64,000 nt of DNA, from contig OZ024743.1 of the NCBI GenBank assembly GCA_964016885.1, forward strand, positions 378,014,001-378,078,000, written 5' to 3'. Positions 13,838-62,915 of the stretch are shown here, one piece after another. Every line of letters begins with the position of its first letter. Positions within the stretch are counted from its first letter, which is position 1. The position numbers were made by a program, and so were the translations under genes. The stretch is from Eledone cirrhosa. Taxonomy: Eukaryota. The notes beneath the pieces were generated by a model. The model worked only from the letters and a program-made list of their open reading frames with translations, searched no databases and was not told where the DNA came from.

Positions 13838-17846
<4,009 letters not shown>

Positions 17847-17848
17847 AT

Positions 17849-19045
17849 TCTACTGAGAAAGCTGTCCAATATTGGTGTCACTGAAAGCTGCTGCAGTGGA
17901 TCAAGAGCTTCCTGTCAAACAGAACCCAACATGTTGTAGTTGAGGGAGTCAAATCAAGCCCAGCCAAAGTCAGTAGTGGAGTCCCACAAGGCACTGTGTT
18001 GGGCCCACTTCTCTTCATCATCTATATTAATGACATCACTGACATCATCAAACACAGCAACATTAAAATTTTCGCTGATGATTCCAAGCTCCAAAAGGTC
18101 ATCAATGGCGTGGATGACCGGATAAGCCTTCAGTCAGACCTACTGGCTGTTACCCAATGGGCAGAAAAGAACAACATGTTACTGAACGAAGACAAATTCG
18201 AACTGATCCACTTTGGAAAAGAGGATGCTCTGAAACTCCCGTACTCCCTTCCCTCCGGGGAAACTCTCGTGGCATCTAACAACATCAGAGACTTGGGAGT
18301 AACCGTGGACAGCAACATAAGCTGGACCACGCATATAAGCAGCAAAGTTGACATGGCCCGCAGAATGTGTTCCTGGATCCTCAGAACCTTCCAGTCGAGA
18401 GATTCCCGCACCATTATCCTTCTCTTCTCTACTTTCGCCCGACCACACCTTGAATACTGTTGTCCACTGTGGTCTCCCCACACGAAACAAAGTATCATGA
18501 AACTTGAAGCTCCTCAAAGGGCAATCACGAAAAAGATAGATGGCATGTCAGACCTTGACTACTGGGGTCGATTGGAAAACCTGAAACTTTACTCACTCCA
18601 ACGTCGCCGTGAGCGTTATATTATCTGCATGATGTGGAAAATGTTCCATCATCACTGCCCAAATGATGTTGGCATCGCCTTCAAGATACACCCAAGCTTG
18701 GGCCCCGTGCTATCCGTCCCATTCAAAATCTAAATCGCAACTCATAACAACAATTACGGCACAATTATTTCACCTCAATCGGCCCTGCTCTCTTCAACAT
18801 CACACCAGGACACGTCAAAACAGAAACTGACCACACAAAATTCAAGAAGTATCCCGGACAAATTCCTCCAAGTAATCCCGACAAACCACCCACACCCGGA
18901 TATGTCTCCGCAAACAGTAATTCTCTTCTCGAATGGGCCATGGTGCCCAAATCCTGAATTGAAAGACTTCGCCAGGTGGTGCTATTAAGTTAGACATGGC
19001 CTGGGCCAATACTGGCCAAAACATTTCAAAGTTATTCAAAGTTAC
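17849..19045 (+). mobile_element. 5'-truncated CR1-group LINE (RT C-terminal half, frameshifted)
   Basis: WIKSFLSNRTQ, GVPQGTVLGPLLFIIYIND, FADDSKL, RDLGV, RPHLEYCCPLWSPH, LYSLQRRRER; short ttcaaagtta tandem tail. Confidence 0.88.
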
Positions 19046-19090
19046 ATACATATATATATATATACATATATATATATACATATATACATA

Positions 19091-19122
<32 letters not shown>

Positions 19123-19139
19123 CATATATATATATATAC

Positions 19140-19172
<33 letters not shown>

Positions 19173-19173
19173 C

Positions 19174-19270
<97 letters not shown>

Positions 19271-19376
19271 CATATATATATATACATATATATATATACA
19301 TATATATATATATGACATATATATATATATATATACATACATATATACATATATATATATACATATATATATATAC

Positions 19377-19416
<40 letters not shown>

Positions 19417-19472
19417 ATATATATACATATATATATATACATATATATATATACATATATATATATACATAT

Positions 19473-19521
<49 letters not shown>

Positions 19522-19653
19522 CATATATATATACATATATATACACATACATATATATACATATATATATATACATATATATATATACATATATATATAT
19601 ACATATATATATATACATATACATATATATATATACATATATATATATACATA

Positions 19654-19694
<41 letters not shown>

Positions 19695-19699
19695 ACATA

Positions 19700-19740
<41 letters not shown>

Positions 19741-20097
19741 ACATATATATATATACATATATATATATATACATATATATATATACATATATATATATAT
19801 ACATATATATATATACATATATATATATACATATATATATATACATACATATATTCATACATATATATATATACATACATTCATACATATATATATATAC
19901 ATACATATATTCATACATATATATATACATACATATATTCATACATATATTCATACATATATATATACATACATATATTCATACATATATTCATACATAT
20001 ATTCATACATATATATATACATACATATATACATACATATATACATACATATATACATACATATATACATACATATATATATACATATATATATACA
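19046..20097. repeat. (TA)n/(TACA)n microsatellite
   Basis: Directly visible. Confidence 0.97.
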
Positions 20098-20510
20098 TGG
20101 TGGCTGCCAACTCGTTTTCGAGTACGGCCACTACTTTATATCCATGTAGGAGAACCCCTACCGAAGCGCTGAACGAGTGTGACTTTTTAGTCCAGCCAGC
20201 GACTTGAAAACTCTGGTACAAACACTACACTTGTGACAATTATTGACACATAGTGCTGGGCCCATGGTACCATGTGACGACAGGTGCAGAGAGATCTCCA
20301 GATATAAAGCAATGCCTGTGCCGTGAAGCCTTTATAGTGAGCAAAGGCACTGCACAAAGCCAGTCCCACTCTCTTAACCAAGATGATATTTACCAAAAAG
20401 AAGAACAAGTCAACATCATTGGATACCATCAGGGTTGCAGGTGTTATATCAGAGTTTTCCTTCTCCTAGAATTCTGCCTTGACAAAGGCTAAGGGGTCAT
20501 CTCTCCCGGA
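20098..20510 (-). mobile_element. Probable RTE-like 5' UTR fragment
   Basis: Minus strand carries ttagcctttgtcaaggcagaattctaggagaaggaaaactc, resembling a recurrent RTE 5' UTR motif (from memory). GC-balanced island within microsatellite. Confidence 0.4.
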
Positions 20511-20524
20511 TATATATACATACA

Positions 20525-20558
<34 letters not shown>

Positions 20559-20740
20559 CATACATATATACATACATATATACATACATATATACATACA
20601 TATATACATACATAGATATACATACATATATACATACATAGATATACATACATATATACATACATATATACATACATAGATATATATATACATACATATA
20701 TACATATGCATATATACATATACATACATATACACATACA

Positions 20741-20776
<36 letters not shown>

Positions 20777-21230
20777 TACATACATATATATATACATACA
20801 TATATACATACATATATATATACATACATATATATATACATACATATATATATATACATACATATATACATACATATATACATACATGCATATATACATA
20901 CATATATATATACATACAGTATATATATACATACATATATATATACATACATATATATATACATACATATATATATACATACATATATATATACATACAT
21001 ATATATATACATACATATATATATACATACATATATACATACATACATATATACATACATATATATATACATACATATATATATACATACATATATATAT
21101 ATATACATACATATATATATACATACATATATATATACATACATATATATATACATACATATATACATACATATATACATACATATATATATACATACAT
21201 ATATATATACATACATATATATATACATAC

Positions 21231-21261
<31 letters not shown>

Positions 21262-21397
21262 CATACATATATATATATATACATACATATATATATATAT
21301 ACATACATATATATATATATACATTATATATATATATACATACATATATATATATATACATACATATATATATATATACATACATATATATATATAT

Positions 21398-21430
<33 letters not shown>

Positions 21431-21602
21431 CATACATATATATATATATACATACATATATATATATATACATACATATATATATATATACATACATATA
21501 TATATATACATACATACATATATATATATATACATACATATATATATATATACATACATATATATATATATACATACATATATATATATATACATACATA
21601 TA

Positions 21603-21643
<41 letters not shown>

Positions 21644-22045
21644 ACATACATATATATATATACATACATATATATATATATATACATACATATATATATA
21701 TATACATACATATATAACATACATATATATATACATACATATATATATATACATACATATATATATATATATACATACATATATATATATATACATACAT
21801 ATATATATATACATACATATATATATATACATACATATATATATATACATACATATATATATATACATACATATATATATATACATACATATATATATAT
21901 ATACATACATATATATATATATACATACATATATATATATATACATACATATATATATATACATACATATATATATACATACATATATATATACATACAT
22001 ATATATATACATACATATATATATATATACATACATATATATATA
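20511..22045. repeat. (TACA)n/(TA)n microsatellite
   Basis: Directly visible. Confidence 0.97.
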
Positions 22046-22645
22046 CGAGCTGATAAATTCCGACCTCACACGCTTACACCTCTCCAAGACAATGTCACTG
22101 GACCGAAACCTTTGGCGGTACTCAGTAATAGAGAAGACCCGCCTTACCTAAATACAAAGTAAAAACCTACTACAGTCAGTAGGCACCTCTATCAAAACAC
22201 ACCCCCGTCCCACCACCTCCACACCGCCCTTTCAATGTAAAGTTATGTTGGACCCACAACATCCAGGCCGAAACAAATGAGATCGTGTAGGTGTCACGAC
22301 AAAAAACACACAGTCCACGCTGTAAATGTGGCCGTGTAGGCAACACGGTAAAAACCTCCCAGCCCCACACTGTAAATGTGGTTGGTGTTAGGAAGGGCAT
22401 CCAGCTGTAGAAAACCCGCCAGACAGTCCACGCTGTAATGTGGCCGTGTAGGCAACACGGTAAAAAACCTCCCAGCCCCACACTGTAAATGTGGTTGGTG
22501 TTAGGAAGGGCATCCAACTGTAGAAAACCCGCCAGACAGTCCTATGCGAGCAAGAACCACTCTTGCCTCAAGTGGAAAACCCCCGTCCAAACCCATGCAA
22601 GCATGGAACAGGAACGCTAAACCTGATGATGATGATGATGATGAC
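22046..22645 (+). mobile_element. 5'-truncated RTE LINE: ORF end, 3' UTR with two 112-bp units, (GAT)n tail
   Basis: [34 protein letters not shown] is almost identical to the copy at 30161. Confidence 0.85.
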
Positions 22646-26145
<3,500 letters not shown>

Positions 26146-26212
26146 TAATGAGTGTGTGTTATTGGTCTCGGGTGTGCGTTAGGGAGAAAAGAAAACGTTA
26201 TAATTTACTCAC

Positions 26213-29767: not shown

Positions 29768-30772
29768 CATCATCATCATCATCATCAACGTTTAACGTCC
29801 GTGTTCCACGCTTGCATGGGTTTGGACGGGGGTATTCCCACTTGAGGCAAGAGTGATTGTCTTGCTCGCATAGGACTGTCTGGCAGGTTTTCTACAGTTG
29901 GATGCCCTTCCTAACACCAACCACATTTACAGTGTGGGACTGGGAGGTTTTTACCGTGTTGCCTACACGGCCACATTACAGCGTGGACTGTGTGTTTTTT
30001 TGTCGTGACACCTACACGATCTCATTTGTTTCGGCCTGGATGTTGTGGCACCAACATAACTTTACATAGGAGGGGGTGGTGTGGATGGGGGTGTGGGTGG
30101 TGGGACGGGGGTGTATTTTGTTAGAGATGCCTACTGGCTGTAGTAGGTTTTACTATGTATTTAGGTAAGGCGGGTCTTCTCTATTACTGAGTACCGCCAA
30201 AGGTCTCGGTCCAGTGACATTGTCTTGGAGAGGTGTAAGTGTGTGAGGTCGGAGTTTATCAGCTCGTCCCAGGATTTTCTAGGTCTGCCTATTCCGTGGC
30301 TACCGTCTATCTTTATTGCCCTGCACTTTGTTATACAGCTATCGACTTTCATGCGCATCACGTGTCCGTACCAACGTAGCCTTCTCTCGAGTAAACAACA
30401 TCTGATCCCTCTTATTTCTAATTTTTTCCTTAGTTCGTTTATGCTTTGCCGTTCACGTATATTACTATTACACATCCAGCGGAGCATGCAAGCTTCGTTC
30501 CTCTCTAGTCTGCGTATATCCTCTGCGCACAATGCCCAGGTCTCACTGCCATGCAACATTGCTGTTCGTATGCAGGCATCATACAACCTGCCTTTCATTT
30601 TTAGGGAGAACCCTTTAGCGGCTAATAGTGGTATAAGCTCTCTGAACCTTTTCCATCCAGTTCTGACTCTAGCTACTGTACTTTCGGAGCACCCTCCCCC
30701 ACTGCTGATTTTGTCACCCAGGTAACGGAAGCTGTCCACTATTTCTATAGAGCCCTCTGCGCAATTGAAAGA
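29768..30772 (-). mobile_element. 5'-truncated RTE LINE with 3' UTR and (GAT)n tail
   Basis: ORF 30161-30739: F.YLGD, RTGWKRFREL, KGRLYDAC.R.AMLHGSETW, RRLRWYGHV.R, GRPRKSW. Confidence 0.9.
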
Positions 30773-31339: not shown

Positions 31340-31657
31340 ATGGAGGCACATGGCTTAGTGGTTAGGGCATTGGTCTTGCAATCGAAAGGTTGTGAGTTCA
31401 ATTCTCAGACCGGGTGATGTGTTGTTTCCTTGAGCAAGACACTTTATTTCACATTGCTCCAGTTTACTCAGCTGTAGAAATGAGATGATAGGACTGAGGT
31501 CCCTATCATTCGTGTAGGCGGCAAAAAAGCACCCAGCACTCACTGTAAATGAGGTTGGTGTTAGGAAGGGCATCCAGCTGTAGAAATCGAGCCAGAATCA
31601 GTTCCCGTCCCACCCTTGCAAGCAGGGACAAGCGGACGTAAAATGATGATGATGATA
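31340..31657 (+). mobile_element. tRNA-derived SINE family B (CORE-like body, RTE-derived tail)
   Basis: TGGCTTAGTGGTTAG A box, GAGTTCAATTC B box, ccttgagcaagacactt...ctcagctgtagaaatgag body, RTE-like tail plus (GAT)n. Confidence 0.8.
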
Positions 31658-36179: not shown

Positions 36180-36345
36180 ATAAGAAGTGACTAAAAGAAT
36201 TGGTATCAGGAATGGTATTTGGCTGTAAAACATATTGCCTTAAAAATTGTCCATTCTAACCCATGCCAATGTGGGATGACAACATAAAAACAATGATAAT
36301 ATATCTAACCCCCCCTCCCCCGCTCTCTCTCTCTATATATATATA
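36180..36345 (+). repeat. Left arm of a ~165-bp inverted duplication (partner 37200-37384)
   Basis: Reverse complement match with about one mismatch outside the simple-sequence runs. Confidence 0.9.
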
Positions 36346-37149
36346 GTCATGACAAAAAACACACAGTCCACGCTGTAATGTGGCCGTGTAGGCATCACGG
36401 TAAAAACCTCCCAGCCCCACACTGTAAATGTGGTTGGTGTTAGGAAGGGCATCCAGCTGTAGAAACCCCACCAGACAGTCCACGCTGTAATGTGGCCATG
36501 TAGGCAACACGGTAAAAACCTCCCAGCCCCACACTGTAAATGTGGTTGGTGTTAGGAAGGGCATCCAGCTGTAGAAAACCCACCAGACAGTCCACGCTGT
36601 AATGTGGCCGTGTAGGCATCACGGTAAAAACCTCCCAGTCCCACACTGTAAATGTGGTTGGTGTTAGGAAGGGCATCCAGCTGTAGAAAACCCACCAGAC
36701 AGTCCACGCTGTAATGTGGCCGTGTAGGCAACACGGTAAAAACCTCCCAGTCCCACACTGTAAATGTGGTTGGTGTTAGGAAGGGCATCCAGCTGTAGAA
36801 AACCCACCAGACAGTCCACGCTGTAATGTGGCCGTGTAGGCATCACGGTAAAAACCTCCCAGCGCCACACTGTAAATGTGGTTGGTGTTAGGAAGGGCAT
36901 CCAGCTGTAGAAAACCCACCACACAGTCCACGCTGTAATGTGGCCGTGTAGGCAACACGGTAAAAACCTCCCAGTCCCACACTGTAAATGTGGTTGGTGT
37001 TAGGAAGGGCATCCAGCTGTAGAAAACCTGCCAGACAGTCCTATGCGAGCAAGACAATCACTCTTGCCTCAAGTGGGAAAACCCCCGTCCAAACCCATGC
37101 AAGCGTGGAACACGGACGTTAAACGTTGATGATGATGATGATGATGAGG

Positions 37150-37153
<4 letters not shown>
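36346..37153 (+). mobile_element. RTE 3' UTR insertion with 6 tandem 112-bp units (36364-37035) and (GAT)n tail
   Basis: Units start at 36364, 36476, 36588, 36700, 36812 and 36924. Tail matches the 29768 copy. Confidence 0.9.
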
Positions 37154-37199
<46 letters not shown>

Positions 37200-37247
<48 letters not shown>

Positions 37248-37384
37248 AGGGGGGGTTAGATATATTATCATTGTTTTTATGTTGTCATCCCACATTGGCA
37301 TGGGTTGGAATGGACAATTTTTAAGGCAATATGTTTTACAGCCAAATACCATTCCTGATACCAATTCTTTTAGTCACTTCTTAT
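37200..37384 (-). repeat. Right arm of the inverted duplication
   Basis: See 36180-36345. Confidence 0.9.
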
Positions 37385-37437
37385 GACACACAGAGACACA
37401 GATTACCTATTCTAAACCAGATATATGCCTGTACCTA

Positions 37438-37470
<33 letters not shown>

Positions 37471-37615
37471 GTATATAACGGGCTGCCCTTTCTAGCAGCT
37501 CGTCCCTCAGAGGCCACTGGTTCACTGCCCTTAAACACGCTGTGACTTCTCTCTCCCACGTGTAGTTGGACGGCCACTTTAAAAATTCTCTTAGTGTTGT
37601 CTGAAATGTATAGCC

Positions 37616-37701
37616 TAACACACGCTGATGAACCTGGGTTATTTTATTTCCGTCAACAACTTAACGGCGAAACAGATCACTTTGGATTTGTACGTGTGTT
37701 A
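37616..37701 (+). ncRNA. Type I hammerhead ribozyme motif (probable Penelope-like LTR remnant)
   Basis: UAACACACG-CUGAUGA-stem II-C-GAAAC-AGAUC/GAUUU-GUA-CGUGUGUUA. 9-bp stem I and 7-bp stem III; A.C mismatch at 10.1-11.1. Confidence 0.72.
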
Positions 37702-37984
37702 TATAGTGATAGAGGTATTTATTTACGCTTTAATTTATATTTTTAATTATCGTGTCTATATTCTGCCTTCCATAGGTTATAGATTCCATACACTGGTGGT
37801 TTTTCCCTGTTTTATTGATGGCGCACTGTATCTCTCTCTAGTGTGTTACCTTTTCAACATATTGTATATATATATATATATATATAAAGCATCGATCGAC
37901 TTTCGTCAAATAGGACCGAGGAAACAATGTTTCCGTTGGTCTTTCCAGTTGCTAGTACTATCTATCGATCACAACTCCAGGTAG

Positions 37985-38072
37985 AAGGAGCAATGTGAAA
38001 TAAAGTGTCTTGCTCAAGGACATAACGCATCACCCAGTCCAAGAATCGAACTCACAACCTCAAGATTGTGAA
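37985..38072 (-). mobile_element. SINE family B fragment
   Basis: Reverse complement of the B box and body. Confidence 0.7.
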
Positions 38073-38453
38073 CATATATATATATATATACACAAATATT
38101 CCAAGTCATGCTGGCAAGCACTCAATGGGTTAAAAGACCAGAGCAATAAACATAGGTTATAAAAGCCATAGATGCCAACCCCCACAGAAAATTCTTCTGA
38201 ACATAGCCGCAGCAAACCAAAGCTGACCTGCCAGCTGACCCCTTAACACCACTACCACTACCAACACAATGGAGGAGGTCAGCTGTACTTAAACAAAAAC
38301 AACTACAACAGATTGTCTTGCCTCAGAAAAATTTCTATATATTCCACTTCCTCAGAGAAATAACAACGCAACCAGGAGCTGGACATATTGTATATTGACG
38401 AAGTAAAACACACTTAAACAACATGTGTACCCGTCTCTACCACACCAATTCGA

Positions 38454-38508
38454 ACTGCCTGAAGATGTCACAGCCAATGATGGCTGTCACCGAAATATAT
38501 ATAGCAGT
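38454..38508 (+). ncRNA. Minimal type I hammerhead ribozyme motif with palindromic stem III
   Basis: ACUGC-CUGAAGA-(ACAGCCA/UGGCUGU hairpin)-GAAA-UAUAUA-UA-GCAGU. Confidence 0.62.
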
Positions 38509-38769
38509 ATACTCTTTTACTCTTTTACCTGTTTCAGCCATCCGGCTGAGGCCATGCTGGGGCACCGCCCTTGGGGGTATATCTATAATTTATAATAAAC
38601 GAAGCCAAATTTTACCTATTTGACTTAATTATTTTACATTACTCCGGAGTAAACAAACCAGCCTGCGTACTTCGTCGAGTGCTCCAATCTGCATACTGAG
38701 GTGTCGGTAAACAACCAACATATACTCAAAATATATATATATACATATATATACATATATATATAAAAT

Positions 38770-39997
38770 TGATGGAAGCTACGGAGTAGGTAGACGCAGA
38801 AAAACCTGGGATGAGGTGATAAAAACTGACCTTGTGCACTTACACCTCTCTAAGACAATGTCACTGGATCGACACCTTTGGCGCTATAATACCCGCCTTT
38901 TCTTACATGCAAACTTAAATCTACAGTCAGTAGGCACCTCTTAACCCAATATACACTGCACCCCACACACCCTGCTCCATCCTCCCACTTCCACCCTTTC
39001 TCTCTAAAGTTATGTTGGTACCACAGAACATCTAGTCCACACTGTAAAGTGATCATGTAGGTGTCACGGCAAAAAGCACCCAGTCCACACTGTAAAGTGA
39101 TCGTGTAGGTGTCACGGCAAAAAGCACCCAGTCCACACTGTAAAGTGGTCGTGTTGGTGTCACGGCAAAAAGCACCCAGTCCACACTGTAAAGTGGTCGT
39201 GTTGGTGTCACGGCAAAAAGCACCCAGTCCACACTGTAAAGTGATTATGTAGGTGTCACGGCAAAAAGCACCCAGTCCACACTGTAAAGTGGTCGTGTAG
39301 GTGTCACGGCAAAAAGCACCCAGTCCACACTGTAAAGTGGTCGTGTTGGTGTCACGGCAAAAAGCACCCAGTCCACACTGTAAAGTGATCATGTAGGTGT
39401 CACGGCAAAAAGCACCCAGTCCACACTGTAAAGTGGTCGTGTTGGTGTCACGGCAAAAAGCACCCAGTCCACACTGTAAAGTGATCATGTAGGTGTCACG
39501 GCAAAAAGCACCCAGTCCACACTGTAAAGTGGTCGTGTAGGTGTCACGGCAAAAAGCACCCAGTCCACACTGTAAAGTGATCATGTAGGTGTCACGGCAA
39601 AAAGCACCCAGTCCACACTGTAAAGTGATCATGTAGGAGACACAGTAAAATGGCTCCCAGTCTACACTGTAAAGTGGTCGTGTAGGTGACACGGCAAAAA
39701 GCACCCAGTCCACACTGTAAAGTGATCATGTAGGAGACACAGTAAAATGGCTCCCAGTCTACACTGTAAAGTGGTCGTGTAGGTGACACGGCAAAAAGCA
39801 CCCAGTCCACACTGTAAAGTGATCATGTAGGAGACACAGTAAAATGGCTCCCAGTCTACACTGTAAATGTGGTTGGTGTTAGGAGGGGCATCTAGCCATA
39901 GAAAACCAGCCAGAAACAGTTCTATACGAGCGACACACGGTCACCAACCAATCTTGCCTCAAGTGGAAGATGGACATTAAACGATGATGATGATGAC
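38770..39997 (+). mobile_element. 5'-truncated RTE LINE whose 3' UTR contains 17 tandem 48/49-bp units (39033-39851)
   Basis: [38 protein letters not shown] end; unit CAGTCCACACTGTAAAGTGGTCGTGTAGGTGTCACGGCAAAAAGCACC; (GAT)n tail. Confidence 0.9.
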
Positions 39998-40004
39998 ATA
40001 ATAA

Positions 40005-40115
40005 TAATTGTTTCTGCTTTTGGCACAAGGCCAGCAATTACCCACCCAGTACATTACTGGTACTTTATTTTATCAACCCCGTATAGATTAAAGGCAAAGT
40101 TAACCTCAGCGGGAT
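40005..40115 (-). mobile_element. SINE family A 3' half
   Basis: Reverse complement of the body. Confidence 0.75.
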
Positions 40116-41881: not shown

Positions 41882-42256
41882 AAGTGTCATGGAAGTGTCA
41901 TGGAAGTGTCATGGAAGTGTCATAGAAGTGTCATGGAAGTGTCATAGAAGTGTCATGGAAGTGTCATGGAAGTGTCATGGAAGTGTCATGGAAGTGTCAT
42001 AGAAGTGTCATGGAAGTGCATGGAAGTGTCATGGAAGTGTCATGGAAGTGTCATGGAAGTGTCATAGAAGTGTCATGGAAGTGCATGGAAGTGTCATAGA
42101 AGTGTCATGGAAGTGTCATAGAAGTGTCATGGAAGTGCATGGAAGTGTCATGGAAGTGCATGGAAGTGTCATGGAAGTGTCATAGAAGTGTCATGGAAGT
42201 GTCATAGAAGTGTCATGGAAGTGCATGGAAGTGTCATAGAAGTGTCATGGAAGTGT
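41882..42256. repeat. 11-bp minisatellite (GAAGTGTCATG)n with GAAGTGTCATA and 10-bp GAAGTGCATG variants
   Basis: About 34 units visible. Confidence 0.95.
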
Positions 42257-44191: not shown

Positions 44192-44670
44192 AAAGTTATA
44201 TTTAATTTGTTGGGACTATCCAGAGAATTTTCAACCGTCAAGGTTGTTTTTCCGCGGGTATGTCAACATTTATAAAACAAATTTAGTATTTTATCTGATG
44301 AAAGCGCACCAAAATTTGCCTAGGTTGCCCTTGAAATATATATAATAAAATAATTATGGTTTTATAAATATAGTTTCCATTTATAAATATATTGTATATA
44401 TATATGCAGTTTTCAACTAGCAATAACCACACCCCAGATAACCCTCATTGGCTATGGTACTGTCTCTCTCTATATGTATGTGTCTGTGTTAAACTTTGAG
44501 AAGCTGATATGTCATATGCAAAATATTGGAATTCAAATTCTACAAAAAAAAAATACGCCGGATTAGCAGTTCTAGGTGTGCTCACTTACATATTAACGAA
44601 ACATGTCAGTCACTTAATAGATGTTAATCCTTCAATTGCAAAATATTGGTGTATTCATGTGATTTATTAA

Positions 44671-44733: not shown

Positions 44734-47700
44734 GGTAGATGTCTGTCTGTGTGTGTATGAATTTTATGCATTTCCACATTTCTCTACCGATTTTGATGAA
44801 TTTTTTCCAATGTGCTCCAAATTTACCAGGGCAGGTCAACGCGTAATTATTTTTGCCAAACATTTCCTGCTTCTAGGAAAAAAAATCGATAAAACTAAAT
44901 ACATGCTGTAACCCTCTCTCTTACACGCTTCATTCCTCTCACTACAAATCAAAAATATATGAAACTACATACATGTTGCAACTCTCTTTAAAAGGTTCAT
45001 CCTTTCCTCTACTCCACTCTCAATCTTCTCTGCAACTCTCTTTAAAAGGTTCATCACTCTCTCTACCCGCCCCCCCCCCCCCCTCAATCTCCTCTGCAAC
45101 TCTTTTTAAAAGGTTACTGCCTCCGTCTACTACTCTATCACCATTACAATTTAGAACAACGACAAAATTCTTTTGAAGGAACGCGACACAAACTTTGAAA
45201 CCTAAGCAACACAACAACCATAGCTTTACTCTCTCCGTCGCTCTTCCCTCTCTCTACAATAGATTATTCCCCCTCTCTATAATTTAACTGCTTTACTCTC
45301 TTCATGCTTCTAAGTTTAACACTAGCTTCACTCTATCCATCGCTCTTCTCTCTGTATATAATAGATCATTTCCCCTATTCGTTCGGGAACGCGAAAAAAA
45401 CTTTGAGAACTAAGCAACACATCATTTTATACAACAAACAGTCATAACGACACTCATACATCAAATATCAAAATTTAAAAAGCCGATAACACTAAATACA
45501 TACTGTTCTCTCAACGTTACATTTTACATCAAATAACAAATATTCAAAAGCAACAGATGAATTTATAAAACAACAAACTCTCTGTCGCTCTTCACTCCCT
45601 ATATGGCAACACTGCAGAGAGAGAAACAATGTATATGATCAAATGGAGCGTTCCATATATACCCCCTCTCTATAATTTAACTGCTTTACTCTCTCTGTCG
45701 CTCTTCACTCCCTATATGACAACACTGCAGTGGAGCGTTCCGTATTGACATACGGCTTATCTGGGGCATTTTCACTCGGCTTATTGTAAATAACAACCCG
45801 CAAAATAACACTTCATATAACAGATTAATGCTATAGACCTATGAATCGGAATGTAACCCATGAACCTTTTCCTGGGCAAAATTATTCAAATAGACATGAC
45901 CTCATTGCCAGAGTGTTCAGACTGAAACTGGCTAAACTGATGGCTTTAATCAAAAAAAGGGTCAGGTATTTGGGGCTGTAAAATGTGACATGTTCACCGT
46001 CTAATGGCAAAAACGAGGGCTGCCACATGCTCACATTTTGATTTGGTTAGCTGATAAAATCAATTCAAGTGCCATAGACAGCTTCATTTCGGCTGAAATC
46101 ACTAACCCAGCAACTGACCAGGAATTACATGACATCGTCAAAGGTAACATGATTCATGGTCCGTGTGCGTCGGGTCCTAATGAGCATCACACGTATCTGA
46201 AAGGGGGGGGGGGGGGTCGTGCAGTAAGGGATACCCCAAAAATTTGTTGACCAGACTCAGACTGGTTGCGACGGGTATCCCCTGTACAGGCGGAGACGGC
46301 CCGAGAACGGTGGCTTCACCACAACAGTAAGGGGAGGTCAAGTCGACAATAGATGGGTGATCCCTTACTGCCCGCTTCTCTTGAAGATGTTCAATGCCCA
46401 AATCAACGTTGAGTTTTGCAACTCCGTCAAGTCGATAAAATACATATGCAAATATGTAAATAAGGGCTCTGATGCCGCAATGTTCGCATTTCAAGCTGAA
46501 AATAGCAAGGACGAGGTCACAGAAAACCTGGCGGGGCGGTACATCAGTAGCAATGAGGCTTTTTGGCGCCTATTTGGTTTACCCCTACACCAATGTCACC
46601 CCGCCATCGCACAGCTTGCGGTACATTTGGAAAATGGGCAAAGGGTTTACTTTATGGACCAAACCGCCGCCAAGTTGGCCACCGATCCGAAAGAGACCAC
46701 TCTGACGGGTTTCTTCAAACTTTGCCAGTTCGATTCATTTGCGCAAACAATTGTGTACCCCAGGTTCCATCCTACTTTATATGGTCGAAAAACACTTGGG
46801 TGCGAAGAAAGTCAGGTCAGGCTGCTGAAAGACATCTTGGTGTAAAATTTGACAGCTGTCTTGGAAGGGTTTAGACTGTGCCCCCCAAGTCAGCATGAGT
46901 GCTTTCATCTCCGCCTTCTTCTGCATGAAGTTATAGGCCCACAAAGTTTTCAGGACATCAAAACTGTTGATGGAGAAATATGTGATACATACCGGGAAGC
47001 CTGCTTTAAGCGAGGTCTTTTGGAAGATGATTCGCAATGGGATTCCACTTTAGCAGAGGGTGCTTTGTTGAAATCACCTAAAGGTCTACGGGAACTCTTT
47101 GCTATTTTGCTTCAAAAGTGTGAATTGGGTGATCCCAAATCTTTATGGGTCAAGTACAGAGACTTCATGTCTGAGGATTTCCTGCGCCTGGCTCATCTGC
47201 AGTATAGTTCAGTGGAAGTTGGTTACAGCGACATTATCTACAACAGGGCATTCATTGATATCGAGGACGCCCTCCTCGACATGGGTGGGAGTGAGTTGGC
47301 GACGTATGGCTTGCCGTCGACCGTCAGAGAGGAAGCTAACACGTTGGCCCCGGATTTGTTGCGTGAAACAGCATATGACATCAAATCTCTTTCCCAATAC
47401 TAAGAGGAAAATGAGCCCAAACTTCTGTCGGACCAAAGGTTGGCCTATTTAACTATCATTGACGCGGTTCAAAATCAGACTGGGGGTATTTACTTTCTCG
47501 ATTACCCCAGGGGTACCGGAAAAACTTATGTAACAAAATTGATTCTCGCTAAGATTCTTCAGGAGAAAAAAATTACGTTGGCCGTTGCATCGTCCGGGAT
47601 CGCTGCTACTTTGCTGCCGGGAGACAGGACAGCATATTCAACCTTTAAACTCGCCTTGGATTTAGTAAAAACTGAGACACCAACATGCAATATCAGCAAG

Positions 47701-49097
47701 AGTTCACACGAAGCTCTGGTTCTCAAAAAATGTTGCCTCATTGTTTGGGATGAGCGCACAATGGCACACAAGGGTGCCCTTGAGGCATTGGACAGGACCC
47801 TGAAAGACATTAGGGATTCTACGGCTCCTATGGGTGGCGTAACCCTTCTGCTATCAGGGGATTTTCGGCAAACACTGCCTGTCATCCCCAAAGGAACAAG
47901 AGATGATGAAGTGCGTGCCTTCCTTAAGTCGTCCATGTTGTGGCTCCAGGTGAATAGTTTGTACCTGAGCACAAATATGCGTGCTCATTTGCATGGTGAC
48001 AACATGTCTGCAGCATTTGCTCAGAACATTTTAGCACTTGGTGAGGGCAAGGTCCCTGCGGATGACAAGGGCGGAATAGCAATCGACTCCCTGTGCAACA
48101 TTGTGAGCAGCCCTTCTGACCTTTGGAAAGCAGTTTTTCCTAATGTCTCATCTAACTTTAAAAACCTCGATTGGCTCAGCAAAAGAGCCATCCTTGCTCC
48201 GAAAAATACCATGGTTAATTTTATTAACGAGCAGCTGATTGAGAAAATTCCCGGTAAAGAACACATCTTCAAATCTATCGACCGGACGTCAGACCCCGAC
48301 GATATCGTTAATTATCCGGTTGAGTTATTAAATTCCCTTGAGCCTCCAGGGCTCCCACCTCACATTCTTAAGCTTAGGGTTGGCTGTCCCATTATGCTAA
48401 TAAGGAACTTGCGTCCACCAAAGCAGTGCAACGGTACTCGTATGGCCGTCAAGTCACTGACGCCCACTTGATTGAGGCCACCATTGTAACGGGGTGCGGG
48501 AGAGGGGAGAATGTTTTCATTCCAAGGATGAACCTTTGCCCCTCGGCGTCAGATATCCCGTTCGATTTCCGGCGATCCCAATTTCAGGTGAGACCATGTT
48601 TTGCCATGTCCATTAACAAGTCACAAGGGCATTGTCGGTGGCGGGCATCCATTTGGGGGAGCAATGCTTCTCCCATGGCTAACTTTATGTTGCCTGTTCC
48701 CGCGTAGGGAGCAGGAATGGACTTTTTGCTCACACTCCTCAAGGGATGACACGCAATATCGTCTACAAAGAGGTGCTATAGATGTTGGTGCATGTGTTGG
48801 AGGTGTTGGAGCTATGGCGTTTGGAAAACTGGTAGGGTCACCCATAGCGGACAGATCTGACACCCAGCGGCATCAGGGCCACCATCTTGCAACTTTGGTC
48901 TACTAAATTCGCTATTGGAAGATTATTAACCCATCATTGATTGTCCAAAATGCTAATTGGTTCGTAACTATTAATAACCGGTTCAACTGCTTTATGCACT
49001 TAATTGATAAACTTATGCGCTTTCAAGATACGTTTACCTGTTTGTAACTTTTCATAGTAAATGAACAAACCCGAGCAACGCCGGGTTAAACTCCTAG
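44725..49097 (+). mobile_element. Helitron with decayed RepHel gene
   Basis: 3' end CCCGAGCAACGCCGGG hairpin plus CTAG (49094-49097) followed by T. The 5' end lies in a (TA)n tract and is shared with the next element. Confidence 0.9.
45855..48780 (+). pseudogene. Helitron Rep (HUH) plus Pif1 helicase coding region, with stops and frameshifts
   Basis: RHDLIARVF, *WQKRGLPHAHIL (HUH), IKYICKYVNKG, GRYISSNEAFWR, YPRGTGKT, IVWDE, GDFRQTLPV, STNMR, CNGTR, FAMSINKSQG. Confidence 0.9.
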
Positions 49098-52005: not shown

Positions 52006-52389
52006 AGCTGACGGCCGTATGTATGTAACAAACTTTTTGCCAAACTGCTGAACCAAACAGCACCAAATTTGCACCATAGATGTAACTTTTTCCAACTAAG
52101 AAAGTGAGGGTATTTTTGTCTACTAAATTTAGTTAAAAGATTAAAGATATTTTATTGTTTATTTAAATATCCACTTCTTTACAATTTTCAAATGTCAACA
52201 CTTCCGCTTAGCGATCTCTCTCTTTCTTAGTCTGTCTTTTTAGATAGATACATAGCTATAACGTTGTGCCCTTATAATATCTGTCTGTATGTCTGGCTAT
52301 CTGCATTACGAAAACCATTCTGTACATTGACTTTGTGATCTGTGTGTGTGTGTATATATGTATATATAGTGTGTGTATATATATATATA

Positions 52390-53905
52390 TTTGACAGAGT
52401 TCCACGTGCAGTAATCTGGTGGGCTCTTAGAAAACTAGGAGTAGATGAATGGCTTGTGAAAGCGGTACAAGCCATGTATAGGGGAGCAGTCAGCAAAGTT
52501 AGGATTGGCAATGAGTATAGCGAGGAATTTAGCGTACAGGTTGGGGTCCACCAGGGCTCTGTTCTTAGCCCTCTCCTGTTCATCATAGTCCTGCAGGCAA
52601 TAACGGAGGAGTTTAAGACCGGATGCCCATGGGAACTCCTGTATGCTGATGACCTCGCACTCATAGCTGAATCTATGGTAGAACTAGAGAATAAATTCCA
52701 AACCTGGAAGCAGGGACTAGAGAGAAAGGGCCTCAAAGTCAACATGACAAAGACTAAGGTCCTTATAAGTAGACGAGAAAACAGAACCCAGATCCCCTCA
52801 GGGAAATGGCCTTGCTCAGTATGTAGGAAAGGTGTAGGTAGGAACTCCATTCTTTGCCCCAAATGCAAACAATGGGTACACAAGAGATGTAGCGGGATCT
52901 CAGGAAGCTTAATTAAGAATGTAGGATTCACATGCAGCAGCTATGCTGAAACAGCAAGCAAACAGCCACAGGAAACAAGTACCACCAATCTCTGGGAGGG
53001 CCCTGTAGAAACAGTAGACAGCTTCTGCTACCTAGGTGACCGAATTAGCAACGGAGGTGGGTGCTCAGAAAGTACAATAACTAGGGTAAGAACGGGATGG
53101 AAGAAGTTTAGGGAACTACTACCACTGCTAGCTGCAAAAGGCTTCTCCCTCAGAATGAAAGGCAGACTGTATGATGCGTGTATCCGAACAGCGATGTTGC
53201 ATGGTAGTGAGACCTGGGCGCTGAAGGTGGAAGACTTACGTAGATTAGAGAGAAACGAAGCCTGCATGCTCCGATGGATGTGTAACAGTAATATACGTGA
53301 ACGACAAAGCATAAATGAATTGAGAGAGAGACTGAGCATAAGAGGAATCAAATGCTGCGTGCAGGAGAGGCGGTTACGCTGGTATGGACATGTGATGCGT
53401 ATGAAGGATGACAGCTGCATAAAAAGGTGCAGAGCACTAGAAGTTGATGGAAACCGCGGAGTGGGGAGACCCAAGATGACTTGGGATGAGGTGATAAAAG
53501 CCGACCTTACCCAACTACACCTCTCAAAGTCAATGACACACGACCGTGACTTCTGGCGTCACACAGTAATACAGGGTACCCGACCTCCCATGGGTACATG
53601 CTGAAGCATATAAACAATATGCCCCCCCCCCCCACCGCAAGGTGGTCGTGGAGGTGCCACGGCAAAAAAGCACCCAGCCCACACTGTAAAGTGGACGTGT
53701 AGGCGCCACGAAAAAGCACCCAGCACTCACTGTAAATGAGGTTGGTGTTAGGAAGGGCATCCAGCTGTAGAAATCAAGCCAGATCAGTTCCTGTATGAGC
53801 AAGGCATGGTCAGCCGACCAGACACTGCCCACAACAGGACAACCCGTCTAACCCATGCTAGCGTGGAAGAACGGACGTAAAACGGTGATGATGATGATGA
53901 TGATG
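52390..53905 (+). mobile_element. 5'-truncated RTE LINE with uninterrupted RT C-terminal ORF (to 53604), structured 3' UTR and (GAT)n tail
   Basis: FDRVP, GVHQGSVLSPLLF, LLYADD, Cys/His finger CSVC...CPKC..WVHKRC, YLGD, MLHGSETW, RWYGHV. Confidence 0.92.
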
Positions 53906-54319
53906 ATATATATATATATATATAGTGTTAGTATCATAAATAAGAGACAGTTTAATTTGTACATTTTATTACAGCATTCCTTTATACTTATATATACATA
54001 CATAAACATGTTATTTACAGTTGTATAAAAAGAAGTATAATTGTTTCTACAAGGCCAGCAATTATCCCAGTACATTACTGGTACTTTATTATATATTATA
54101 TATATAATACAACATTCCTCTCTCTTTCTTACTCTGTCTCATTAATACTATACTATACTATATATTTTTAACAATAATACTATACTATATGTTTTCAACA
54201 GTAATACTATACTATACTATATATTTTCAACAGTAATACTATATATACTACACAGACGACTTATCTGTTTATCCAAGCGAAGCTAGATACGTCAACTATA
54301 TATACATATATATGGATGT

Positions 54320-55765: not shown

Positions 55766-58700
55766 CCTTGAATCTCAGTCATTGATGTTGGTTAACTGGA
55801 AAGTCCGTTGGATTGAATATCAAGCCACTACCTGCAGCCTCAGATATTCAGGACGTATCGGAGGGTTCTTGCCGTTCCAAGCAAGCATGCCTTTTGAAGC
55901 GTTCCAAAAAGCGTGAAGGGGCCGATTTTCTTTAACCATCCCTGGAAACCTTTGGAGATAGTCCCCAGTGCGCCTATGACAATCGGGATCACTTTGACTT
56001 CATGGCAGTTCCAAATCCTTTTCACCTCCCACTTTAGGTCCTGGTATCGGTTAATTTTCTCCCTCTCCTTCTCTTGCACTCTCGTGTCGAACGGGCAGGC
56101 CACATCCACAATCAGGCACGATCTTTTTTCTTTGTCCACAACCACCAGGTCAGGTCTATTGTGTTCCAGTTTTTTGTCCGTCTGTATCCTAAAATCCCAC
56201 AGCACCTTCACCTGACTGTTCTCCATCACCGCCTCTGGCCTATGCTCATACCATTTCTCAGAATGTGGTAGATTGTTTACTTTGCACAGGTGCCAGTGGA
56301 TCACCCTGCCCATCACATCGTGTCTCCAGCCCTTATAGTGGGTCTGGGCTAGGTGTTTACACTCGGACACAATGTGAGCCACAGTCTCCTCTCTCTCTCC
56401 ACAGATCCTGCACAGTGGGCTAGCCTCCTCCTTGTAGATATGGTGCTTCAACCACTTCGTTTTGAGGGCCTGCTCCTGCGCAGCCATTAGCATTCCTTCT
56501 GTAGCCTTTTTGAGGTCTCCTCTTCTCAACCAGTTCCATGTCTGTGGATCTCTAAATTCAGTTTTCTCAAAGAAGGTACTATGAAGGGATTTTCCCTTAA
56601 GGCTGCTCTTCCTCCTTGATGTTATTTCCTCCTTGGGTATCCCCTGGCCTACTCTCCCCTCCTTCAGTACAGCTCTGAGCATTGGCTCCTTACTATAGGT
56701 CACGTATTTGTATAGGTTGTTTTTCTCCATCTGAACACAGTCCTCTATGCTGATAAGACCTCTTCCACCCTCAGATCTCCTTAGGTAGAGTCTATCGACA
56801 TCACTCCTCTTGTGGAACATGTTGTAGATAGTCAATAGCTTCCTAGTCTTCCTATCCATTTCTTTTTGTTCAGCAACATTCCATCTCAGAATTCCCGCAC
56901 TGTACCTAATAATAGACACAGCTCGGGAATTTACTGCGCTTATGGCATTTCTGCTGTTCAGATGTGACTTCAATACGCTCCTTACTCTCCGAATGTATTC
57001 AGTTCTTAACAATTCCTTCATTTTTTTGTTCTTTATGCCATCAGCCTCCAGAACGCCCAAATACTTGTATCCTTCCTCAGAGTCAATTTCCTTTATCATC
57101 TCACCTGTTGGTATCTGGATCCCGTTACTTCTGCTCAACCTACCCCTCCTCATCACAATAACTCCACATTTACCAATACCAAACTGCATACATATATCAC
57201 TGCTGAAAATACGGACAGTGTCAACAAGCACATCCAACTCCTTCTCACTTTTCCCGAAGAGCTTAAGATCGTCCATGAAGAGGAGGTGATTGATGGTAAG
57301 CTCTCCCCTTCCCAACTTGTATCCTGCTCTCACTTTTCGCAGCATAATGGTCAAGGGCATCAGGGCAAGGACAAACAACAGAGGGGACAGGCTATCTCCC
57401 TGGAAGATACCTCTCTTGATCTTCACGCTTCCCAAGGATACTCCAGTTGATGTCAACTCTGTCTCCCAGGACCCCATACTCCTGCCCAGCAACTCTCTGA
57501 TGTTATCTGCCACCCTGAAGATCTCCAGGCTTTTGGTGATCCAGGAATGAGGCACCATGTCAAATGCCTTTCTGTAGTCTATCCATCCCATGGCAAGATC
57601 AGTGTGTCTCCTCCTGCAATTCCCCATTACCATCTTATCAATAAGCAACTGGTCCTTTGTACCACGTGACTTCTTTCGGCATCCTTTCTGTTCGTCCGGC
57701 AACAAGTTGTTTGTGTGGAGGTGATGGTAGATTTCCTCAGACACAATGCTCGTCAACAGTTTCCACATTACGGGCAGACATGTGATAGGTCTATAGTTGG
57801 TAACATCATTACCCTTGATTCGGTCTTTCATTATCAGAACTGTGGTACCTTTTGTCAACCACTCTGGCACCTCACCCGACACCAAGCAGTCATTGAACAT
57901 GGCCGTCAGCTTCGGGTGGAGGGATGTTAAATGTTTAATCCAATACCCCTGCACACCATCTGGGCCTGGTGATTTCCAGTTGGTTAGTTTTTTGGCTTGC
58001 CCCTTAAGAGTTTCAACTGTGATACTCAAATCAGTCTGTTGCTGTGCCTGCTCACCGATCTCCCTCTGTACTGTCTCAATCCACCCTGCCTGGGCATTGT
58101 GTCTAACATCCTGCTCCCATATTCCTCTCCAGAATGTTTTAGCTTGTTCCGCCCCAGGGATCAAGTCGGTGCCTCTTTCTTTCCCCTCAAGCTGTCCAAA
58201 CAGCATCTTCTGGTTGTTGTCGAACATGCGGTTCTGTTTATACTGACTGACTCTGTTCTCGTATCGCCTGATTTTGGCACTCTTTGCTACAATGCGTTGC
58301 TTCAATTCCTCTATGATAATATTTAGCTTTTTACTCCTAGTTTTGTATTTTATTTCCAGTCTATTTTTAGTGCCTATGTTTTTTAGTGTCCCATTCAGTA
58401 GTGACTCAAGCTTTCCTATGTCATTTCTCATTTCCCCGATTTGCCCACTCAGTCGCTTCTTCCACCACGGCTCTGCTCTTTCTTGTCTGTTGTTTCCTCT
58501 CGCTTTTATACCTAGTAGTTTCCTCACCGTATTTGCTGTTGCTTTGAGGATATTGTTGCACTGGTGAAGACTCCTCGCCTCAAGGTATGGGATGACTTTG
58601 TTTACCTTAGCTGTTGTTTCTTTTAACTTTTTCCTGTCTACAAATCTTAGGTTCATAGGTCTCCCACTATCATTGTTCAACTCATCTACCACTAAATTTA

Positions 58701-59275
58701 GGATGTCAACCGAATCTTGTCCTAGCCCGTCAGCATTCATCTCCTCAGTGGCCGTATCTCTGTTCCAGGTATTATTTATCTCAGTATTCAGATCATTGTC
58801 TGCTTCGGGTGGTTCCTCCGCTCTCAGGACCTCCTCACCTTCATTTCCCGCCGGCTCGCTTGTCTGGCATACTACACCCGCCATCTCCAAGCCATTCTCT
58901 CTGCTCAGTTCCTCCAGTTCCAGCTCGCTTATCCACCCATTAGTTCTTATTACCCGAGCCTGCCCGGCCAATTTTTGTTCATCTAATTTAAATAAACCAA
59001 TCTCGTTCCAGATGTTATGCATCCGTCTCCTGTAGCCCCTCTCCTTGGGGTTACTTTTCAGGTAGCATTGCATAACAGTTCTATTCAATTCTTTCGTCCA
59101 GTTGGTTCTGGCCCCTTTCCTTCTTCTTCTTCCTCCAACATCAGCAGTATTTCGTTGACAGTCAGGTTCCTGCTGCTGAGCCAGGGGGCACCTGTTGGGT
59201 GAGAGTCTGTCACATGACGTTCTAGTCTCCATTTCACCGTTATTCGAACTGTTTATGTTCGATATTTAAACACTC
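55766..59275 (-). mobile_element. Apparently full-length R4/Dong-like non-LTR retrotransposon in a (TAA)n-type tract
   Basis: Single RT-CCHC-RLE ORF with TTA/TTG trinucleotide tracts on both sides. Confidence 0.88.
55840..59232 (-). CDS. 1130-aa reverse transcriptase / restriction-like endonuclease protein
   Basis: NWKSPGPDG, YRPITCL, QKGC, WIDYRKAFD, GIFQGDSLSPLLF, LFMDDLKL, GGRGL, CRICG...HIVSEC, RHD, RPDLVVVD...DVACP...K..RY.DL; no stops. Confidence 0.93.
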   Translation of the reverse strand: METRTSCDRLSPNRCPLAQQQEPDCQRNTADVGGRRRRKGARTNWTKELNRTVMQCYLKSNPKERGYRRRMHNIWNEIGLFKLDEQKLAGQARVIRTNGWISELELEELSRENGLEMAGVVCQTSEPAGNEGEEVLRAEEPPEADNDLNTEINNTWNRDTATEEMNADGLGQDSVDILNLVVDELNNDSGRPMNLRFVDRKKLKETTAKVNKVIPYLEARSLHQCNNILKATANTVRKLLGIKARGNNRQERAEPWWKKRLSGQIGEMRNDIGKLESLLNGTLKNIGTKNRLEIKYKTRSKKLNIIIEELKQRIVAKSAKIRRYENRVSQYKQNRMFDNNQKMLFGQLEGKERGTDLIPGAEQAKTFWRGIWEQDVRHNAQAGWIETVQREIGEQAQQQTDLSITVETLKGQAKKLTNWKSPGPDGVQGYWIKHLTSLHPKLTAMFNDCLVSGEVPEWLTKGTTVLIMKDRIKGNDVTNYRPITCLPVMWKLLTSIVSEEIYHHLHTNNLLPDEQKGCRKKSRGTKDQLLIDKMVMGNCRRRHTDLAMGWIDYRKAFDMVPHSWITKSLEIFRVADNIRELLGRSMGSWETELTSTGVSLGSVKIKRGIFQGDSLSPLLFVLALMPLTIMLRKVRAGYKLGRGELTINHLLFMDDLKLFGKSEKELDVLVDTVRIFSSDICMQFGIGKCGVIVMRRGRLSRSNGIQIPTGEMIKEIDSEEGYKYLGVLEADGIKNKKMKELLRTEYIRRVRSVLKSHLNSRNAISAVNSRAVSIIRYSAGILRWNVAEQKEMDRKTRKLLTIYNMFHKRSDVDRLYLRRSEGGRGLISIEDCVQMEKNNLYKYVTYSKEPMLRAVLKEGRVGQGIPKEEITSRRKSSLKGKSLHSTFFEKTEFRDPQTWNWLRRGDLKKATEGMLMAAQEQALKTKWLKHHIYKEEASPLCRICGEREETVAHIVSECKHLAQTHYKGWRHDVMGRVIHWHLCKVNNLPHSEKWYEHRPEAVMENSQVKVLWDFRIQTDKKLEHNRPDLVVVDKEKRSCLIVDVACPFDTRVQEKEREKINRYQDLKWEVKRIWNCHEVKVIPIVIGALGTISKGFQGWLKKIGPFTLFGTLQKACLLGTARTLRYVLNI

Positions 59276-62582: not shown

Positions 62583-62915
62583 ATGGAGGCACATGTCTTA
62601 GTGGTTAGAGCATTGGCCTTGCAATTGAAAGGTTGTGAGTTCAATTCTCAGACCGGGTGATGTGTTGTTTCCTTGAGCAAGACACTTTATTTCAAGTTGC
62701 TCCAGTTTACTCAGCTGTAGAAATGAGATGATAGGGACTGGGGTCCATATCATTCCACTGCAAAGTGGTCGTGGAGGTGCCACGGCAAAAAAGCACCCAA
62801 TGAGGTTGGTGTTAGGAAGGGCATCCAGCTGTAGAAATCAAGCCAGAATCAGTTCCGGTCCCACCCTTGCAAGCAGGGAAAAGCGGACGTAAAATGAAAT
62901 GATGAAATGATGATC
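62583..62915 (+). mobile_element. SINE family B
   Basis: Near-identical to 31340-31657. Confidence 0.85.

Follow-up and report, generated by a model that had tools for sequence, protein, structure and literature searches.

The window analysed here, 64,000 nucleotides of the Eledone cirrhosa genome (assembly GCA_964016885.1, contig OZ024743.1, positions 378,014,001 to 378,078,000), belongs to a 378.8-Mb contig whose end is ~0.8 Mb away. At 38765..38893 on the forward strand, which is also that of the other RTE-type and SINE copies described below, the window carries what is left of an RTE-type LINE ORF, the C-terminal 43 codons, in a 5'-truncated copy whose start adjoins an (AT)n run. The remnant is followed by the C-rich 5' part of a 3' UTR (38894..39032, ~140 nt), which matches 39 other listed places at 83–90% and whose 3' end resembles a degenerate repeat unit by inspection. 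The tandem array then begins with 12 48-nt 'alpha' units at 39033..39608, each a combination of two predicted small folds termed PK1 and PK2, the latter with a GGUG/CACC crossing stem. It continues at 39609..39851 with alternating 49-nt 'beta' (GGAG/CUCC) and 48-nt units, which form a 97-nt higher-order repeat with private changes. Beyond the array lie a terminal PK1 in a 21-nt form (39852..39872), a stem with a purine-rich loop that is the most widely conserved part of the tail ('module C', 39872..39911), the end of the 3' UTR (39912..39982), from which a deletion of ~31 nt has taken the terminal hairpin, and a (GAT)n tail (39983..39996).

The array at 39033–39851 thus consists of 17 units (14 of 48 nt, three of 49 nt), and a terminal unit starts at 39852; Tandem Repeats Finder calls a 48-nt array at 39034–39867. 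The count of 17 units plus a terminal unit between the ORF end and the (GAT)n tail, as given in an earlier note on this DNA, was reproduced, the ORF remnant was matched and the tail is present. A C-to-T change of the terminal PK1 recurs in the array only directly after the 49-nt beta units, which fits duplication of the 97-nt block after that change had occurred. The terminal hairpin that the array copy lacks is present in 40 of 43 relatives, these being the relatives, out of 58, with module C and the tail in range.

The source of the unit was traced through the ORF remnant, which over 41 aa is 61% identical to residues 986–1026 of a 1039-aa ORF encoded elsewhere in this assembly. This ORF is the sole one of at least 200 aa at its locus and contains Exo_endo_phos, RVT_1 and PHD domains, that is, APE endonuclease, RT and PHD. 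RTE-clade LINEs are defined by a single ORF with APE endonuclease and RT and by the lack of an ORF1. The 1039-aa ORF has this single-ORF layout, the window copy being tied to it by the short match above, and (GAT)n of at least three repeats ends 29 of 30 young copies as well as the array copy. From the layout and the repeat tail, we take the element to be of RTE type. The proposal that the unit is a segment of an RTE-type LINE 3' UTR is therefore supported.

A young copy of this type with a normal tail lies in the same window (52339..53907). A protein search with part of it (52339–53604) returned 129,989 first-look candidates; 150 of them were scored and 30 loci fetched. Beyond this genome, homologous ORFs are plentiful (1072 of 8000 candidates). 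The tail of the young copies runs in the order GNRA hairpin, PK2, PK1, a weakened PK2, PK1, module C, terminal hairpin and (GAT)n. One young family (L401–L430) carries an 89-nt repeat of PK2/PK1 variants with an extra segment, and shows tandem expansions at several loci. A related subfamily is found at 36363..37155, where a 112-nt unit (PK1, PK2, PK1, module C) is expanded six times and followed by a tail; the same unit occurs in one or two copies at 2698–2902, 22310–22535 and 29880–29991.

The tail block is also shared by a tRNA-type SINE at 62583..62915, with a second copy at ~31340–31656. The SINE head is A- and B-box-like by inspection, and ARAGORN called no tRNA in the window, the SINE head included. 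The SINE retains PK2, PK1, module C and the terminal hairpin, the stretch between them having been dropped, and the differences between the SINE and LINE terminal hairpins are compensatory. As a separate observation, the SINE body has a second PK1-like stretch with CAG/CUG and CUCA/UGAG pairings (31459–31483 and 62703–62727), a string found at 31 places; the conserved CORE domain of animal SINEs has a similar motif.

An intact unit can be parsed as PK1 followed directly by PK2, i.e. as two abutting H-type folds. PK1 would comprise 3+4 or 4+3 bp with linkers of 1, 0–1 and 4 nt, and PK2 a first stem of 5–6 bp, a crossing stem of 4–5 bp and an A-rich loop of 6–7 nt. The earlier note's version of PK1, CAGU/ACUG with all four loop bases paired, leaves no L1 linker; the 3+4 and 4+3 forms are workable. 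In 2000 dinucleotide shuffles, judged by criteria chosen after the unit had been seen, both folds abutting were obtained 0 times, the larger fold alone 25 times and the smaller alone 659 times. The parse of each unit into two pseudoknots accordingly beats shuffled sequence, but many units have lost stems: PK2 (5+4 bp) is retained in 9 of the 17 array units and PK1 as 3+4 bp in 8, with a 3+3 core in all 17. The proposed figure of about 35 is thus an overcount where intact pseudoknots are meant.

The pairing variants listed previously were all found for GGAG/CUCC in the 49-nt unit, for CUCA/UGAG near 31535 and 53720, and for UCGUGG/CCACGG near 53645. AGG/CCU in the 112-nt family is also present, but as merely 3 bp in a shifted register. 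Further, neither the array nor the tail matches an Rfam family, whether at gathering level or with the E limit relaxed to 10, the region 36300–40100 giving only AT-repeat noise. A self-cleaving ribozyme was considered as a candidate and set aside: no hammerhead, pistol or HDV core was recognised by eye, and there was no Rfam match.

Variation among subfamilies is most informative for PK2. Four further seeded searches added subfamilies, giving 340 loci at 295 distinct places, and PK2 was parsed at 228 places without use of pairing. At these places the crossing stem reads GGUG/CACC 162 times, GGAG/CUCC 59 times, and mixed forms 15 and 5 times. The innermost pair of the first stem is U-A (116), G-C (62), C-G (29), U.U (91) or U.C (48) depending on the family, and the one-base linker varies freely. 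Among 18 hand-picked subfamily states, 90.4% of cells pair compared with 85.4% in shuffles, and five pairs are changed on both sides (1 of 500 shuffles; slid controls at most 1); of the five, one can be traced to a misaligned row and another occurs in one row only. Two of the four crossing-stem pairs change on both sides. A lax check of all column pairs, run after 24 of 42 states had been dropped as CpG decay, gave two Watson–Crick types in 3 of 11 predicted pairs versus 11 of 199 others. RNAalifold on 18 rows returned 8 pairs at -1.88 kcal/mol. The notion that the junction base always pairs was discarded, since every base finds a partner where one side offers U and the other G.

PK2 is not uniformly kept. 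Five of the 18 rows are unpaired at one crossing pair, and two young families have a disrupted or shifted crossing stem in their last unit (GGCG/CACC, 35 places; GGCA/CUCC, 18 places), both of them retaining an intact PK2 upstream. Compensatory changes in both stems nonetheless favour the suggestion that PK2 variation across subfamilies preserves pairing, with few independent lineages and chosen rows behind them, and they argue with moderate force for a predicted PK2 pseudoknot in the ancestral 3' UTR.

For PK1 the signal is mixed. Its second stem shows an A-U to U-A change in terminal units and a C-G to U-G to U-A series in two other families, and both stems are available in 21 of the 24 commonest strings. 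The first stem, CAG/CUG, is invariant and so yields no covariation, and covariation tests were not significant (231 and 26 of 500 shuffles, seven rows each). Of the earlier pseudoknot model, the second stem thus shows two double changes, while the first stem and the tests add nothing; the comparison only weakly suggests that PK1 forms a pseudoknot.

Module C has a wider distribution than the rest of the tail, occurring in at least 121 metagenome stretches, and PK1 and PK2 are absent upstream of it in the metagenome stretches listed. Module C was also considered as a third pseudoknot. The crossing stem is found at 23 of 117 metagenome loci, compared with a shuffle mean of 14.7 and a maximum of 27, and as this is not above shuffles no such pseudoknot is claimed. 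In runs from three other organisms, a loose-end consensus has the PK1 and PK2 frame before module C, at a consensus agreement of ~0.5–0.65 with families mixed. A zebrafish 3' RACE sequence contains a motif similar to module C, as given in the available text of PMC5147938. At three metagenome loci (L170, L183 and L225), module C and the end of an RTE-like ORF, ~180–220 nt apart, are on opposite strands.

How the 17 units arose can be judged from the copy number of relatives. Exactly two PK2 modules are present in 30 of 30 young copies fetched, the window's own young copy included. A sample of 29 relatives of the array subfamily, picked by the upstream flank and hence independently of the array, has no unit in one, one unit in eight, two in 13, 7–20 units in four and an interrupted arrangement in three. 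In the usual subfamily tail a 48-nt unit and then a 49-nt unit precede the terminal block; beta is simply the normal second unit and its GGAG/CUCC pairing a subfamily trait. A sample of 79 10-kb regions at even spacing, 790 kb in all and with small contigs over-represented, contains 54 module C matches, with 0–2 units in 48, seven units in one and five unparsed; arrays with at least four unit starts number four in these regions. Rough scaling of this sample to the 3.0-Gb genome suggests ~200,000 tails.

Long arrays are idiosyncratic. Among those listed from 30 loci, they reach at least 84 unit starts and have private higher-order orders. In 22 arrays of at least eight units, a mean of 84% of the units have a string absent from the other arrays, and of 231 pairwise comparisons between arrays, 212 reveal no identical unit in common; the shared run is one unit in 16 comparisons, two units in two and five units in one. 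Stem-breaking changes are spread through whole arrays, for example at locus L138, and the long arrays keep an intact PK2 in 204 of their 584 units. Taken together, two-unit young tails, locus-private unit orders and mostly broken stems indicate that the long array is likely a LINE-derived minisatellite that grew in place after insertion. Near-identical neighbouring units would have been amplified by unequal exchange or slippage, like those of any minisatellite. The long train at this locus, taken alone, would then represent ordinary repeat turnover, and the array is an example of a LINE tail as a prolific minisatellite seed.

A close parallel is provided by sSat, the SINE-derived satellite type of squamates. 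According to the available text of PMC10702118, it too is a tandem internal retroposon segment with a longer terminal unit that runs to the element end, and it shows variable copy number and alternating di- or trimeric patterns for which unequal recombination was proposed. In the octopus array, an internal segment likewise stands in tandem with an extended terminal unit, and copy number and order vary between loci. Unlike sSat, which is SINE-derived, the array has an ORF remnant upstream and its source is a LINE 3' UTR, making it the LINE counterpart; further, the parent already has two near-identical units and the unit coincides with a predicted RNA fold. A subtelomeric preference is another trait of sSat; the window represents one locus, ~0.8 Mb from its contig end.

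The reading that accounts best for these observations, with a probability of about 0.55, is that the array grew in place from a two-unit 3' UTR whose predicted chain of stacked hairpins and pseudoknots serves in template recognition by the RT. The ancestral 3' UTR would have been a chain of 4–6 abutting small H-type folds, with PK2, predicted as a stem of 6–7 bp, a linker of 1–2 nt, a crossing stem of 4–5 bp and an A-rich loop, stacked on the PK1 helix. The ORF protein may bind the block and the terminal hairpin, loading the RNA for target-primed reverse transcription, and the SINE may retain the block in order to borrow the LINE machinery. At least one intact PK2 would be kept per family while duplicates decay. 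That the short chain loads RNA on the RT is suggested by the block shared with the SINE and by the precedents of LINE/SINE tails and the R2 pseudoknot, and by this analogy a role of the short chain in RT template handling is likely.

As to the first of these precedents, the shared 3' tail of SINEs and LINEs has been taken as the part recognised by the LINE protein, and RTE-clade LINE/SINE pairs share, like the present pair, a 3' end with a terminal hairpin that shows compensatory changes (PMC3747384, PMC6007223, as far as their available text goes). The available portions of these two reports describe the hairpin only, the word 'pseudoknot' occurring 0 times in the main text of either. The second precedent is the A-clade R2 element, whose small 3' UTR pseudoknot is, in the accessible text of PMC12180492 and PMC12222951, bound by the protein and required for insertion, with compensation rescuing the pairing. 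R2 and the LINE tail are alike in having a small pseudoknot, here a predicted one, in a non-LTR 3' UTR upstream of a terminal stem. As those texts have it, R2 carries one pseudoknot-hinge-stem in the last 65–67 nt, read by the zinc fingers of an element with a restriction-like endonuclease. The present element differs in encoding APE, RT and PHD and in having a predicted chain of 4–6 modules ~70–250 nt from the tail, so that its tail falls outside the A-clade R2 type in both protein domains and position.

A different role for the short chain would be that of an RNA stability or translation element of the tobamovirus kind, which would block 3' exonucleases or replace poly(A) on a (GAU)n-ended RNA. 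Tobamovirus H-type folds are comparably small, and abutting small H-type folds with A-rich loops match their geometry. The LINE tail ends in (GAT)n and not in poly(A), and in both systems small H-type folds, predicted ones in the LINE, follow one another within a 3' UTR that lacks poly(A). Translation is stimulated by the TMV domain, an effect for which poly(A) can substitute (PMC5382211, in its available text). Moreover, RT recognition could fall to the terminal hairpin alone, a separate structure that shows compensatory changes of its own. The LINE tail differs from that of tobamoviruses in ending in a hairpin and (GAT)n with no tRNA-like end, and its block is kept in a non-coding tRNA-type SINE. 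Retention of the block in an untranslated SINE would go unexplained by a pure translation enhancer, which disfavours the tobamovirus-like translation role that the earlier note had put forward, and the Rfam search likewise gives a stability or translation element no family to belong to. On balance this role for the chain is possible but unlikely.

The crossing stems could also be incidental, the units being simple hairpins in which the PK2 first stem is joined by a GNRA or an 8-nt-loop hairpin. The nested minimum-energy fold of a unit is indeed two hairpins, and nested folding, which cannot model pseudoknots, finds no unusual stability (z of -1.26 to +1.04 over seven stretches). The GNRA hairpin competes closely with PK1 (-3.9 versus -3.7 kcal/mol), and both the young LINE and the SINE have it in place of PK1 in their first module, to which no other fold is open; there it has 5 bp and a U-A to C-G change, and in the 112-nt lineage the first PK1 has decayed. 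The broken crossing stems of young families and the invariant first stem of PK1 point the same way. Against hairpins alone, only 11 of the 23 common PK1 strings that were scored would allow a 4-bp GNRA hairpin, which shows no double change in internal units, whereas both PK1 stems are available in nearly all common strings (21 of 24, as above). Further, the double changes at half of the PK2 crossing pairs are left without a reason, and the crossing stem contributes 7.6–10.1 kcal/mol of stacking before loop costs. That the units are hairpins only is consequently rather improbable.

A bolder proposal extends the stability role across animals: a LINE lineage and its SINEs would use a modular chain of stacked 3' UTR mini-pseudoknots in place of poly(A), protecting and loading (GAU)n-ended RNA as tobamovirus 3' UTRs do, with modules added, decaying and re-paired across subfamilies and module C spanning animal phyla. 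We regard this as doubtful. If a reading of the chain as a poly(A) substitute were true, the ~200,000 copies could be a source of such elements for the transcripts of the host.

Finally, that the long train is itself functional and mobile, many-unit elements being transcribed and retrotransposed with copy number tuning RNA fate, is very improbable: expansions are frequent (4 of 29 relatives with at least seven units, and at least 84 starts among the arrays listed), but young copies are fixed at two units, unit orders are locus-private with stem-breaking changes through whole arrays, and the array copy is truncated and without the terminal hairpin. The arrays sampled also point away from sister insertions with a long array in common. 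The functional, copy-number-variable train of the original proposal is therefore unsupported, and the '35-pseudoknot train' is unlikely to act as a functional unit.

On the preferred reading, RT recognition of the short chain, interest thus shifts to the two-unit tail. RNA recognition and protection in poly(A)-less APE-type LINEs is known mainly as a terminal hairpin with a repeat tail (available text of PMC6007223 and PMC3747384), and in the literature found, a LINE 3' UTR pseudoknot has been shown only for A-clade R2 (PMC12180492 and PMC12222951, in the text available). No published description of the pseudoknot chain was found in a search that covered subscription papers thinly and had Repbase, Dfam and figures outside its range. 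The chain is not described in the available parts of PMC13282606, PMC4758252, PMC5737381, PMC6274825 and PMC11481361, and the motif is absent from the supplements of PMC13282606 (one file) and PMC4758252 (three of four files). As predicted from sequence, the short pseudoknot chain would constitute a new form of structured LINE tail. With a conserved multi-module chain, a very abundant young family of RTE type whose 1039-aa ORF is intact, a partner SINE and natural compensatory variants, the question lends itself to direct testing.

The window contains several further features. On the reverse strand, between (AAT)n-type repeats, 55840–59265 holds an uninterrupted 1141-aa frame that matches RT and, weakly, a zinc finger; its motifs suggest an R4/Dong-like element encoding a restriction-like endonuclease, which may be intact. 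A PIF1 helicase fragment at 46228–48471 (forward strand) probably belongs to a broken Helitron-like element. The only Rfam match at gathering level in the window is to U4 snRNA at 44362–44477 on the reverse strand (49.8 bits against a gathering threshold of 46). Region 13839–26147 is a degenerate AT-rich microsatellite of ~12 kb with a LINE fragment inserted near 22000–22650, and an 11-nt minisatellite of ~34 copies occupies 41882–42256.
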